From Escherichia coli (GTDB lineage: Bacteria > Pseudomonadota > Gammaproteobacteria > Enterobacterales > Enterobacteriaceae), in assembly GCF_017348835.2 (NCBI RefSeq), contig NZ_CP071375.1: DNA of 64,000 nt. One strand, given 5' to 3'. This document shows, piece after piece, positions 4,845 through 37,889 of the stretch (positions are counted from its first letter, which is position 1; each line of letters begins with the position of its first letter). The position numbers were made by a program, and so were the translations under genes. Below the pieces are notes generated by a model. It was given only the letters and a program-made list of their open reading frames with translations, was not told the origin of the DNA and made no database searches.

Positions 4845-6149
4845 ATGAAAACCCGTACACAACAAATTGAAGAATTACAGAAAGAGTGGACTCAACCGCG
4901 TTGGGAAGGCATTACTCGCCCATACAGCGCGGAAGATGTGGTGAAATTACGCGGTTCAGTCAATCCTGAATGCACGCTGGCGCAACTGGGCGCGGCGAAA
5001 ATGTGGCGTCTGCTGCATGGCGAGTCGAAAAAAGGCTACATCAACAGCCTCGGCGCACTGACTGGCGGTCAGGCGCTGCAACAGGCGAAAGCGGGTATTG
5101 AAGCAGTCTATCTGTCGGGATGGCAGGTAGCGGCGGACGCTAACCTGGCGGCCAGCATGTATCCGGATCAGTCGCTCTATCCGGCAAACTCGGTGCCAGC
5201 TGTGGTGGAGCGGATCAACAACACCTTCCGTCGTGCCGATCAGATCCAATGGTCCGCGGGCATTGAGCCGGGCGATCCGCGCTATGTCGATTACTTCCTG
5301 CCGATCGTTGCCGATGCGGAAGCCGGTTTTGGCGGTGTCCTGAATGCCTTTGAACTGATGAAAGCGATGATTGAAGCCGGTGCAGCGGCAGTTCACTTCG
5401 AAGATCAGCTGGCGTCAGTGAAGAAATGCGGTCACATGGGCGGCAAAGTTTTAGTGCCAACTCAGGAAGCTATTCAGAAACTGGTCGCGGCGCGTCTGGC
5501 AGCTGACGTGACGGGCGTTCCAACCCTGCTGGTTGCCCGTACCGATGCTGATGCGGCGGATCTGATCACCTCCGATTGCGACCCGTATGACAGCGAATTT
5601 ATTACCGGCGAGCGTACCAGTGAAGGCTTCTTCCGTACTCATGCGGGCATTGAGCAAGCGATCAGCCGTGGCCTGGCGTATGCGCCGTATGCTGACCTTG
5701 TATGGTGTGAAACTTCTACACCGGATCTGGAACTGGCGCGTCGCTTTGCACAAGCTATCCACGCGAAATATCCGGGCAAACTGCTGGCTTATAACTGCTC
5801 GCCGTCGTTCAACTGGCAGAAAAACCTCGACGACAAAACTATTGCCAGCTTCCAGCAGCAGCTGTCGGATATGGGCTACAAGTTCCAGTTCATCACCCTG
5901 GCAGGTATCCACAGCATGTGGTTCAACATGTTTGACCTGGCAAACGCCTATGCCCAGGGCGAGGGTATGAAGCACTACGTTGAGAAAGTGCAGCAGCCGG
6001 AATTTGCCGCCGCGAAAGATGGCTATACCTTCGTATCTCACCAGCAGGAAGTGGGTACAAGTTACTTCGATAAAGTGACGACTATTATTCAGGGCGGCAC
6101 GTCTTCAGTCACCGCGCTGACCGGCTCCACTGAAGAATCGCAGTTCTAA
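4845..6149 (+). CDS. aceA: Isocitrate lyase
   Basis: ORF 4830..6149; protein [15 protein letters not shown]... with the KKCGH active-site motif; trimmed to 434 aa. Confidence 0.95.
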
Positions 6150-34054: not shown

Positions 34055-34788
34055 TCAAACAAACTTTTGTCGCGTTGCTTTTGAGTGTGGGAGCGTCATC
34101 GGTCTTCGCGGCAGGAACCGTCAAGGTGTTCAGCAATGGCAGCAGTGAGGCCAAAACACTAACAGGCGCAGAGCATTTAATCGATCTGGTAGGCCAACCG
34201 CGGCTGGCAAACAGCTGGTGGCCCGGTGCGGTGATCAGCGAAGAGCTGGCAACGGCGGCAGCATTGCGTCAGCAGCAGGCGTTGCTGACACGGCTGGCAG
34301 AACTGGCCGCAGACTCCAGCGCTGATGATGCCGCTGCGATTAACGCCTTACGCCAGCAAATTCAGGCGTTGAAAGTGACGGGTAGGCAAAAAATCAATCT
34401 TGATCCCGATATCGTCCGCGTTGCCGAACGCGGTAACCCGCCGTTGCAGGGGAACTACACGCTGTGGGTCGGACCACCGCCGTCCACGGTCACGTTGTTC
34501 GGGCTTATCAGCCGTCCTGGCAAGCAGCCATTCACTCCAGGTCGCGACGTGGCGAGCTATCTCTCTGACCAGAGCCTGCTCAGCGGTGCGGATCGCAGCT
34601 ACGCGTGGGTGGTTTACCCGGACGGACGCACGCAAAAAGCGCCGGTGGCTTACTGGAACAAGCGTCACGTAGAGCCGATGCCCGGCAGCATTATTTATGT
34701 TGGCCTCGCGGACTCCGTCTGGAGTGAGACGCCTGATGCCCTTAACGCCGACATTCTTCAGACTCTGACGCAGCGGATACCTCAATAA
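34051..34788 (+). CDS. yjbG: Periplasmic protein YjbG
   Basis: ORF 33955..34788 trimmed to [20 protein letters not shown]... (signal peptide); ATG overlaps the yjbF stop (ATGA). Confidence 0.8.
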
Positions 34789-36884
34789 TGAAAAAAAGAC
34801 ATCTGCTTAGCTTACTGGCGCTGGGCATTAGCACAGCTTGCTACGGCGAAACATATCCTGCGCCCATTGGTCCGTCGCAGTCGGATTTCGGTGGCGTAGG
34901 ATTATTACAAACGCCCACGGCTCGCATGGCGCGGGAAGGGGAGTTGAGTCTGAACTATCGCGATAACGATCAGTACCGTTATTACTCAGCTTCAGTGCAA
35001 CTCTTCCCGTGGCTGGAAACAACGCTGCGCTACACCGACGTGCGCACCCGGCAGTACAGCAGCGTCGAAGCGTTCTCTGGCGATCAAACGTATAAAGATA
35101 AAGCCTTCGATCTCAAACTGCGTTTGTGGGAAGAGAGTTACTGGCTGCCGCAAGTGGCGGTTGGTGCGCGGGATATCGGCGGTACGGGGCTGTTTGATGC
35201 GGAATATCTTGTTGCCAGCAAAGCCTGGGGGCCGTTCGATTTTACGCTCGGCCTGGGCTGGGGGTATTTGGGCACCAGCGGTAATGTGAAAAATCCGCTC
35301 TGTTCAGCCAGTGATAAATATTGCTATCGCGATAACAGCTACAAACAGGCGGGATCTATCTACGGTAGCCAGATGTTCCACGGTCCTGCCTCACTGTTTG
35401 GCGGCGTGGAATACCAGACGCCCTGGCAACCGCTGCGCCTGAAACTGGAGTATGAAGGCAATAATTATCAGCAGGATTTTGCCGGTAAGCTGGAGCAAAA
35501 AAGTAAGTTTAACGTCGGGGCGATTTATCGCGTTACCGATTGGGCCGACGTTAACCTTAGCTATGAACGTGGCAACACCTTTATGTTTGGCGTCACGCTG
35601 CGCACCAACTTTAACGATCTGCGCCCGTCTTACAACGATAACGCCCGCCCGCAATATCAACCGCAGCCGCAGGATGCCATTTTGCAGCATTCGGTGGTGG
35701 CGAATCAGTTAACGCTGTTGAAATACAATGCCGGACTTGCCGATCCGCAGATCCAGGCGAAAGGCGATACGCTGTATGTTACCGGCGAGCAGGTGAAATA
35801 TCGTGATTCGCGCGAAGGGATCATCCGTGCTAATCGGATCGTGATGAATGATCTGCCGGATGGGATCAAGACGATCCGCGTTACGGAAAATCGCCTTAAC
35901 ATGCCGCAGGTGACGACGGAAACGGATGTCGCCAGCCTGAAAAATCATCTCGCCGGAGAGCCGTTGGGCCACGAAACGAAGCTGGCGCAAAAACGCGTCG
36001 AGCCAGTGGTTCCGAAGTCCACCGAGCAGGGCTGGTATATCGACAAATCGCGCTTTGATTTCCATATCGATCCGGTGCTGAACCAGTCGGTCGGTGGCCC
36101 GGAAAACTTTTACATGTATCAGCTGGGCGTGATGGGAACGGCAGATTTGTGGCTGACGGACCATCTGCTCACCACCGGCAGCCTGTTTGCAAATCTTGCC
36201 AACAACTACGACAAGTTTAACTACACCAATCCGCCGCAGGACTCGCACTTACCGCGCGTGCGTACCCATGTGCGCGAGTATGTGCAGAACGATGTCTATG
36301 TGAATAACCTGCAAGCCAACTACTTCCAGCATCTGGGCAACGGCTTCTACGGTCAGGTCTACGGCGGCTATCTCGAAACCATGTTTGGCGGTGCGGGGGC
36401 TGAGGTGTTGTATCGCCCGCTGGACAGCAACTGGGCGTTTGGTCTGGATGCCAACTACGTTAAACAGCGCGACTGGCGTAGCGCGAAAGATATGATGAAA
36501 TTCACCGACTACAGCGCGAAAACCGGACATCTGACCGCGTACTGGACGCCATCTTTCGCCCAGGACGTGTTGGTGAAAGCGAGCGTTGGGCAGTATCTGG
36601 CAGGGGATAAAGGCGGCACGCTGGAGATCGCCAAACGCTTTGATAGCGGTGTGGTGGTGGGTGGCTATGCCACGATCACGAATGTTTCGAAAGAGGAGTA
36701 CGGCGAAGGGGACTTCACCAAAGGCGTGTATGTCTCTGTACCGTTGGATCTCTTCTCGTCTGGCCCGACACGCAGCCGTGCGGCGATTGGCTGGACGCCG
36801 CTGACGCGTGACGGTGGTCAGCAACTTGGGCGTAAGTTCCAGTTGTATGACATGACCAGCGACCGTAGCGTCAATTTCCGCTAA
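34788..36884 (+). CDS. yjbH: Outer-membrane-type lipoprotein YjbH
   Basis: 698-aa ORF with N-terminal signal/lipobox (LALGISTAC); start overlaps the yjbG stop. Confidence 0.85.
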
Positions 36885-36930
36885 GTCATGGGAAAGGTGC
36901 CAGTTTTCGCACTCACTGGCACCTTCATTC

Positions 36931-37209
36931 TTAATGGCCTGTCGAGCCATCAGGAACGCAGTTCACCCCCGGTTTGCGATCTGGTGTGTAAAGGCGAAAA
37001 CATTCTGTCTTCCTGTCCGTCGATATCGGTTGCAGGTCTGGTTGCCTGAGCGACTGGGCCATCATTGGGCTGGAGACATTGCTTTGCGGTAGGTCGGCTT
37101 TATCAGCAGTACCGAGCGGACCAGCATAAGCAGGAAGAACAGAGACTGATAACATCAAAGCAGCAAAATAAGGCTTCATTTTTACCACCTTTATCAGGTT
37201 ACGTTTCAT
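36931..37209 (-). CDS. Small putative secreted protein (possibly the yjbT-type gene)
   Basis: 92-aa minus-strand ORF in the yjbH-psiE intergenic region with a plausible signal peptide (MKPYFAALMLSVSVLPAYA); start may be the internal Met at 37179. Confidence 0.4.
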   Translation of the reverse strand: MKRNLIKVVKMKPYFAALMLSVSVLPAYAGPLGTADKADLPQSNVSSPMMAQSLRQPDLQPISTDRKTECFRLYTPDRKPGVNCVPDGSTGH

Positions 37210-37478
37210 TTGTTCCAGAGGAACATTGTCGATTTTTCGCGCATTGCTGGTGGCTGGGAATCACCTGAATGGGTGATTTTTGAATTACCGGCTTTGGTGC
37301 GGTTTGTCTTGCCGGATGCGCCGCCAGGCGCGGCTTATCCGGCCTACGGGTAGGTATATCCGGCTTTGGTGGAGGCGCGCTCCAAATCCAGGTTGAACAA
37401 AACATACACAAAAAATATAGATCTCCGTCACATTTTTGCGTTATACAGGAAGCTCGCCACTGTGAAGGAGGTACTGCT

Positions 37479-37889
37479 ATGACGTCACTCTCTCGTCCGC
37501 GCGTGGAGTTTATCTCCACCATTTTGCAGACCGTACTCAATCTTGGCCTGCTGTGCCTCGGCCTGATTTTGGTTGTCTTCCTCGGCAAAGAAACGGTGCA
37601 TCTGGCTGATGTGCTGTTCGCGCCAGAACAAACCAGCAAATATGAGCTGGTAGAAGGACTGGTGGTTTACTTTCTCTATTTCGAATTTATCGCGCTGATT
37701 GTGAAGTACTTTCAGTCCGGTTTTCACTTCCCGCTACGTTACTTTGTCTATATTGGGATCACCGCCATTGTGCGCTTGATCATCGTCGATCATAAATCGC
37801 CACTGGATGTGTTGATCTACTCGGCTGCGATCCTGTTACTGGTGATCACCCTGTGGCTGTGTAATTCGAAACGGCTGAAGCGGGAGTAA
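37479..37889 (+). CDS. psiE: Phosphate-starvation-inducible protein E
   Basis: 136-aa membrane protein [29 protein letters not shown]... recognised as PsiE. Confidence 0.93.

Follow-up and report, generated by a model that had tools for sequence, protein, structure and literature searches.

The 594-nt gap between yjbH (34788..36884, plus strand) and psiE (37479..37889, plus strand) in Escherichia coli raises the question of whether the DNA between them is a mere spacer or holds a gene of its own. The window that we analysed, a stretch of 64,000 nucleotides, covers the yjbEFGH - psiE - xylE - malG region, and a list of its open reading frames contains a minus-strand frame at 36931..37209 that begins with ATG and runs for 92 codons followed by TAA (MKRNLIKVVKMKPYFAALMLSVSVLPAYAGPLG...DGSTGH). 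A preliminary description of this DNA had placed a 92-residue ORF in just this position and orientation, had regarded it as an unlisted gene for a small secreted protein in an otherwise long intergenic region, and had tentatively suggested the name yjbT.

The name proved correct. An exact-sequence lookup of the 92-residue product returned an identical entry, the 'Uncharacterized protein YjbT' (UniProt YJBT_ECOLI), and residues 1-92 align to positions 1-92 of the Pfam model PF17089 (YjbT, uncharacterised protein family) with 217.7 bits and an E value of 1.4e-65, the gathering threshold being 27 bits; the mature part of the protein alone scores 147.1 bits. In the RefSeq record of K-12 MG1655 the same 279 nt are annotated between yjbH and psiE as the CDS WP_001295279.1, 'periplasmic protein', and the gene order yjbG > yjbH < yjbT has been given in the literature (PMC9962212). 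The intergenic interval between b4620 (minus) and b4030 (plus) listed in the supplement of PMC3734233 (4238079..4238347) is 269 nt long and identical to window positions 37210..37478, with a coordinate offset of 4,200,869, and hence b4620 is the ORF at 36931-37209. Compared with K-12 YjbT (b4620) we find the same amino acids, position, orientation and full-length PF17089 match and no difference, that is, the same gene. The ORF is the annotated, monocistronic E. coli gene yjbT and is not new. Every E. coli record that we sampled lists it as a CDS, so 'unlisted' does not apply, and the gap is a long intergenic region only as long as yjbT is ignored.

yjbT is thus already known, having a place in the E. 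coli annotation and a Pfam family of its own, and is one of the K-12 genes without known function. The full-text papers containing the string 'yjbT' include no study of the function of the gene, NCBIfam holds no model for YjbT, a Pfam scan at E<=10 returned YjbT as the sole family, and a sequence and profile search of the PDB at E<=10 returned no related chain. The machine-learned association 'YjbT - inhibits E. coli' (PMC12746109) was set aside as functional evidence, as this feature probably just marks the Escherichia lineage. What we add to the known gene is a probable correction of its start codon, the concentration of selection on its tail and a set of conserved regulatory elements, which together make the gene more tractable.

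The gene is transcribed. RNA-seq data show b4620 transcripts in seven of seven samples or conditions, and their 5' ends map to 37216-37231 of the window (PMC3734233). The same study lists a 61-nt plus-strand 'predicted ncRNA' at 37226-37286, to which we give little weight, the table being noisy and consisting mostly of read-length fragments. At the protein level, yjbT/b4620 is absent from the supplements of E. coli absolute-proteome, acid-stress Ribo-seq and N-terminomics studies, the tables of which are possibly incomplete.

The start of translation

The preliminary description had named the absence of a translation signal as grounds for refuting the ORF. A strong Shine-Dalgarno sequence, AAGGTGG, is present on the minus strand at 37191-37185, yet it lies 5 nt ahead of the ATG of Met11 (37179) and not ahead of the annotated ATG at 37209, upstream of which our reading of the sequence detected no Shine-Dalgarno-like motif. 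The block (A/G)AGG(T/G)(G/T)GT...AATG that comprises this signal and the Met11 codon is kept in eight loci of five genera, and Kluyvera, Pseudocitrobacter, Buttiauxella and the metagenomic loci all share the block CTGAT-AAGGTGGTAAAAATG. At the loci outside Escherichia, ATA or GCC stands where E. coli has its upstream ATG, an indel of 1 nt puts that position out of frame, and every intact homolog from Kluyvera, Pseudocitrobacter, Buttiauxella and Shimwellia is 75-85 residues long and starts at the equivalent of Met11. As the Shine-Dalgarno sequence and its ATG are conserved outside Escherichia, where the upstream ATG is absent or out of frame, translation most likely begins at Met11 and yields 82 residues. 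The probable true CDS would then be 36931..37179 on the minus strand, 82 codons and a stop, and the 92-residue database model is probably too long by ten residues at the N-terminus.

We consider it unlikely that the annotated 92-residue product, starting at 37209 with the long basic n-region MKRNLIKVVKMKPYF (+5), is the real one. E. albertii, E. whittamii and two more species of Escherichia keep the upstream ATG and the ten extra codons in frame, four of the six main RNA-seq 5' ends fall 7-22 nt upstream of this ATG, and a longer basic n-region fits Sec export; nevertheless, initiation there would proceed without a Shine-Dalgarno sequence from a leader of just ~8-22 nt, at a codon that is replaced, and cut off by the frame break, in every locus outside Escherichia, while the distant homologs all begin at the Met11 equivalent. 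Moreover, the Shine-Dalgarno sequence of Met11 (37185-37191) constrains part of the extra stretch whether it is coding or not. As the upstream ATG is kept in the Escherichia species and lies inside most of the RNA-seq transcripts, some minor initiation at Met1 may accompany the main start at Met11.

Selection on the frame and layout of the product

The preliminary description had set conservation of the frame, with a dN/dS analysis, as a check on the ORF, and it is in the C-terminal codons that strong purifying selection was found. We compared E. coli yjbT codon by codon with ~50%-identical homologs from Kluyvera georgiana (L012) and from metagenomic relatives (L004 and L007). Between E. coli and L004 the last 25 codons carry 18 synonymous differences over 18.7 sites and no nonsynonymous difference over 56.3 sites (Fisher p = 2e-16), the ~50%-identical comparisons of these 25 codons together give Nd of 0-1 versus Sd of 14-18, and whole-gene dN/dS between genera is 0.09-0.21. 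Chance alone could open a frame as long as this one in 594 nt, but eighteen synonymous against zero nonsynonymous differences mean that the ORF is not a chance opening of the gap. Nucleotide-level conservation, an RNA element and recent transfer were considered as sources of this codon pattern and none of them can yield it. The yjbT reading frame is under purifying selection and is truly protein-coding.

A chance or decaying frame that was annotated by mistake can thus be dismissed with near certainty. Such a reading could draw on the lack of a functional study among the papers with 'yjbT' and of a protein-level record in the supplements checked, as well as on the frameshifted alleles of some E. 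coli and Shigella and on one strain without the gene; against it stand 25 codons in which synonymous divergence is saturated while no amino acid has changed, a pattern that also excludes the recent transfer of a non-coding element, the retention of the gene in 99.8% of complete E. coli genomes and in five genera, and the conservation of its Shine-Dalgarno sequence and terminator.

An alignment of all intact family members divides the protein into three parts. The first is a predicted signal peptide of 19 codons at 37123..37179 (minus strand), MKPYFAALMLSVSVLPAYA, with predicted cleavage at AYA|GPLG. By hand computation over eight members, the n-region has a charge of +1 or +2, the hydrophobic core measures 10-14 residues, and the best 10-residue Kyte-Doolittle (KD) value is 1.5-2.7; small residues occupy -3 and -1 in all eight (AYA|G, VFA|I, VYA|I, AHA|Q, SYA|S, AFS|Q, CYS|Q and CYA|Q) and the mature N-terminus is polar. 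These values agree with the features of a Sec signal cut by signal peptidase I, namely the charge of the n-region, an h-region of ~10-15 residues and the -3/-1 rule. The signal-peptide-like segment pointed out in the preliminary description is therefore real, its features being kept across the family while its sequence diverges, although its setting in a 92-residue ORF is to be revised, as the first Met of the segment is Met11, the likely true start. Cleavage by signal peptidase II as a lipoprotein was rejected, for there is no lipobox ([LVI]-[ASTVI]-[GAS]-C) and the E. coli signal peptide has no Cys; the Cys found in the signal peptides of Buttiauxella and Shimwellia has Pro before it (APC) and Y-[SA]|Q after it.

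The second part is a variable, proline-rich linker of 38 codons (37009..37122, minus strand). Between Escherichia and the Kluyvera-type homolog L004 its dN/dS is about 0.7 (Nd 43.7/87.8, Sd 15.3/26.2), whereas to E. albertii it shows no nonsynonymous and four synonymous differences, so that its conservation is confined to Escherichia. The third part is a C-terminal module of 25 codons (36934..37008, minus strand), TECFRLYTPDRKPGVNCVPDGSTGH, the one in which every difference to L004 is synonymous. It carries two Cys 13 residues apart, and its motif, T-x-C-[FY]-x9-PG[VIL]NC[VI]PD, is nearly invariant at 30-54% overall identity and persists in the members with as little as 30-38%, with the C-x13-C spacing constant, which suggests that the YjbT family is defined by its last 25 residues alone. 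The predicted mature protein of E. coli is hydrophilic, with 63 residues, 6.8 kDa, a GRAVY of -0.79, eight Pro and two Cys. AlphaFold, run on an alignment of six sequences, returned no secondary structure and no usable model (pLDDT 50, pTM 0.10). The preliminary description's small secreted or periplasmic protein agrees with the RefSeq term, which is a name rather than a test of location, and with the conserved signal-peptide features. From these features we infer Sec export and cleavage by signal peptidase I and, from the Cys pattern, a Cys-Cys ring made by DsbA.

Based on these comparisons we propose a model that we regard, taken as a whole, as likely to be correct. Translation would start mainly from Met11 behind AAGGTGG and give an 82-residue precursor, from which signal peptidase I would remove the 19-residue Sec-type signal after Ala-Tyr-Ala, leaving a hydrophilic, proline-rich periplasmic protein of ~63 residues. 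The first ~38 residues of the mature protein would be a poorly constrained spacer and the last 25 its functional unit, in which the two Cys, judging from their pattern only, most likely form a periplasmic disulfide made by DsbA that closes a 15-residue ring. The ring would present [DE]-[RH]-x-P-G-[VIL]-N, followed by the tail C-[VI]-P-D, as a binding surface for a partner in the envelope, and the gene would have control elements of its own, namely a palindrome upstream, a hairpin at the 5' end and another one as terminator. Tags and fusions can be placed with the help of the probable start codon and the predicted boundaries of the mature protein, and the 25-residue, Cys-bracketed tail, on which selection acts almost exclusively, is a target for mutagenesis or for a synthetic peptide.

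The same layout could be that of a pre-pro-peptide, in which the linker is removed and a disulfide-closed C-terminal peptide of ~25 residues is the active species, be it a signal, an inhibitor or a toxin. A signal peptide followed by a linker with dN/dS of ~0.7 and a Cys-containing C-terminus with Nd of 0 is what such a precursor would look like, and the size of 82 residues and the order of the parts resemble the precursor of the heat-stable enterotoxin STa, which has 72 residues, a Sec signal of ~19 residues, a weakly conserved middle and a conserved, Cys-containing C-terminal peptide. The likeness to STa precursors is one of analogy and not of membership: STa has six Cys in three disulfides and YjbT two Cys, and STa is borne by plasmids or transposons in pathogens only, whereas yjbT is a chromosomal core gene found in commensals and pathogens alike. 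Membership in the heat-stable enterotoxin family was rejected, as the Pfam scan at E<=10 gave YjbT only and no toxin or peptide family (nor did the PDB search give anything), and the Cys are two rather than six. We see neither a processing site nor a gene for a protease or an exporter in the vicinity, and the linker is conserved within Escherichia (the comparison with E. albertii given above), both of which speak against its removal. On balance we think a pre-pro-peptide improbable, though worth keeping in mind.

An uncleaved signal anchor, which would hold YjbT in the inner membrane as a small protein with its tail in the periplasm, appears to us less probable still. Small proteins of E. coli are frequently of the single-pass membrane type, and cleavage of the YjbT signal is a prediction only; yet its hydrophobic core of ~12-14 residues contains Pro and is too short for a stable transmembrane helix, and every member has a small-x-small motif followed by a polar residue, as is typical of cleaved signals. 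We therefore favour a cleaved, exported precursor. In this respect YjbT resembles other small Sec-exported periplasmic proteins of Enterobacteriaceae whose roles are unknown or related to stress, such as the YhcN/DUF1471 group, which are likewise precursors of ~80-90 residues with a cleavable signal, encoded by stand-alone genes and limited to enterobacteria. The proteins of the DUF1471 group consist of a folded domain, and one genome encodes many paralogs of them, whereas YjbT lacks such a domain, is single-copy in E. coli, and is predicted to be hydrophilic and rich in Pro, with a conserved tail of 25 residues.

Non-coding elements around yjbT

Downstream, a GC-rich hairpin with an 11-bp stem (36894..36925) lies between the convergent yjbT and yjbH genes and folds with -21.3 kcal/mol (z = -3.4). 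A hairpin of -17 to -23 kcal/mol directly follows the yjbT stop codon in eight of eight loci, the sequences being unrelated between lineages. Given this folding energy and the recurrence of hairpins at the other loci, the element at 36894..36925 is a probable terminator shared by yjbT and yjbH. Consensus scans of 36800-37520 flagged neither a promoter nor a terminator; the terminator escaped the scan due to its weak T tail.

Upstream, the 5' hairpin TGTTCC-TCT-GGAACA (37211..37225, minus strand), with the shared core GTTC(C)/(G)GAAC, is found in ten loci 44-50 nt before the ATG, with a stem of 5-8 bp and a loop of 3 to 5 nt, and it folds in E. coli. As its loop varies between 3 and 5 nt, we favour an RNA or DNA hairpin over a protein-binding site, and as the RNA-seq 5' ends lie at 37216-37231 it would sit right at the 5' terminus of the yjbT mRNA or close to it. 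It was assessed sequence by sequence and not from a consensus fold; an SD-sequestering stem of -2.6 kcal/mol, which an automatic consensus fold of the 5' leader had produced, was discarded, for there the variable-loop hairpin is misaligned.

Farther upstream is an 18-bp palindrome, ATCAC-N8-GTGAT (37260..37277), with a fixed 8-nt spacing, 96-100 nt from the ATG. It occurs in ten loci (among them L004, L009-L014, L016 and L019) that represent five genera and four contexts. Its fixed spacing favours the site of a dimeric regulator; on the plus strand of E. coli it also folds as a hairpin followed by U5, which makes it a candidate for either an operator or a plus-strand terminator. To our knowledge it fits none of the sites of CRP, FNR, IHF, Fur, HipB or MqsA. 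We also read by eye a candidate sigma-70 promoter (37232..37260, minus strand; -35 TTCCCA, 17 nt, -10 AAAAAT) with 8 of 12 consensus matches, the -10 of which aligns with GATAAT, AATACT or AACAAT at other loci and is compatible with the RNA-seq 5' ends; this promoter is a weak and speculative candidate. A sigma-E type promoter, GGAAC...CTGAT, was considered by hand and rejected, as its spacing is too short by ~5 nt and its start site would fall inside the Shine-Dalgarno sequence.

Judged by these comparisons, yjbT carries the same non-coding elements across four neighbourhoods and is a self-contained unit; the operator-like palindrome and the 5' hairpin offer a way to its regulator and to the inducing condition. 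It is a tentative and rather doubtful thought that YjbT is a lineage-restricted exported peptide whose one functional part is the 25-residue module with its ring, that this module binds some component of the envelope as a ligand or inhibits it (in Escherichia perhaps the neighbouring YjbEFGH machinery of polysaccharide export), and that a regulator controls yjbT at the ATCAC-N8-GTGAT operator. If true, the module would stand for a new class of small periplasmic effector and the 92-residue model would be wrong at its 5' end.

Two further features occupy the spacer on the psiE side. RefSeq/PGAP annotates a 47-residue 'hypothetical protein' with a TTG start, WP_000487766.1 (37210-37353, plus strand), which abuts the annotated yjbT start codon and extends over both the promoter region of yjbT and a REP-like element. 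Pfam gives no match to it, and in other Escherichia its frame meets a stop after 24 codons (L008) or has a different C-terminus (L010); WP_000487766.1 is probably a spurious CDS. The REP-like palindromic element, GCCGGATAAG...GCATCCGGC (window ~37252-37345), scores 29 and 24 bits on the two strands against Rfam naRNA4, below the threshold of 59.5. In many E. coli strains (H16-H24) the yjbT-psiE spacer is ~55 bp shorter and the REP-like part is missing.

Distribution and neighbourhood

Within E. coli, yjbT is present as a single copy with at least 95% identity in 5414 of 5426 complete genomes (99.8%). The family as a whole is small: 5.8 billion proteins contain 14 clusters of it, exhaustive searching with a profile turned up 12 YjbT hits in 1.84 billion representatives, and among ~100,000 species representatives the C-terminal patterns were matched in four Escherichia loci and in K. 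georgiana only. The named sources are Escherichia, Kluyvera georgiana, Pseudocitrobacter, Buttiauxella (two diverged members) and Shimwellia. The layout psiE <- -> yjbT -> <- yjbH is seen in Escherichia, K. georgiana, Pseudocitrobacter and one metagenomic lineage, whereas in Buttiauxella and two other lineages yjbT is unlinked to yjbH and has as neighbours csbD/NmrA/AraC genes, a DUF2767 gene or GH1/PTS genes. Relative to yjbEFGH, yjbT is on the opposite strand and has its own terminator hairpin. From this distribution, its linkage to the yjbEFGH exopolysaccharide locus looks ancestral but not obligatory.

In K. georgiana (L012, 4389-4844) and in a metagenomic relative (L007, 528-983) a gene for a 151-residue hexapeptide-repeat (acetyltransferase-like) protein comes right after yjbT; in L012 it sits between yjbT and a yjbH-sized ORF of 698 residues.

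Losses and lesions of yjbT also occur. In E. coli EC42405 (L003) a deletion has removed yjbT together with most of the yjbH-psiE spacer, leaving a gap of 120 nt compared with 594 nt, so that one natural isolate at least can do without yjbT. Frameshifts occur in some alleles from E. coli, Shigella flexneri and metagenomes (P0006, P0012, P0013, P0014 and P0034), with the frame switching in the linker and sometimes being restored before the C-terminal motif; these alleles point to pseudogenisation from time to time, or else to errors of sequencing, in the linker. Of the 5415-5418 places matching the yjbT region, one lies in a record labelled as a plasmid, perhaps because the replicon is mislabelled or because it has captured a segment of the chromosome.

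The far side of psiE varies as well (loci L002, L003, L012 and L013). xylE (37933-39408) is missing between psiE and malG in E. coli ECO21 and EC42405, in Pseudocitrobacter and L019, where psiE abuts malG, and apparently, from ORF sizes only, in K. georgiana; compared with the ancestral order of genes, xylE thus has the look of a polymorphic insertion.
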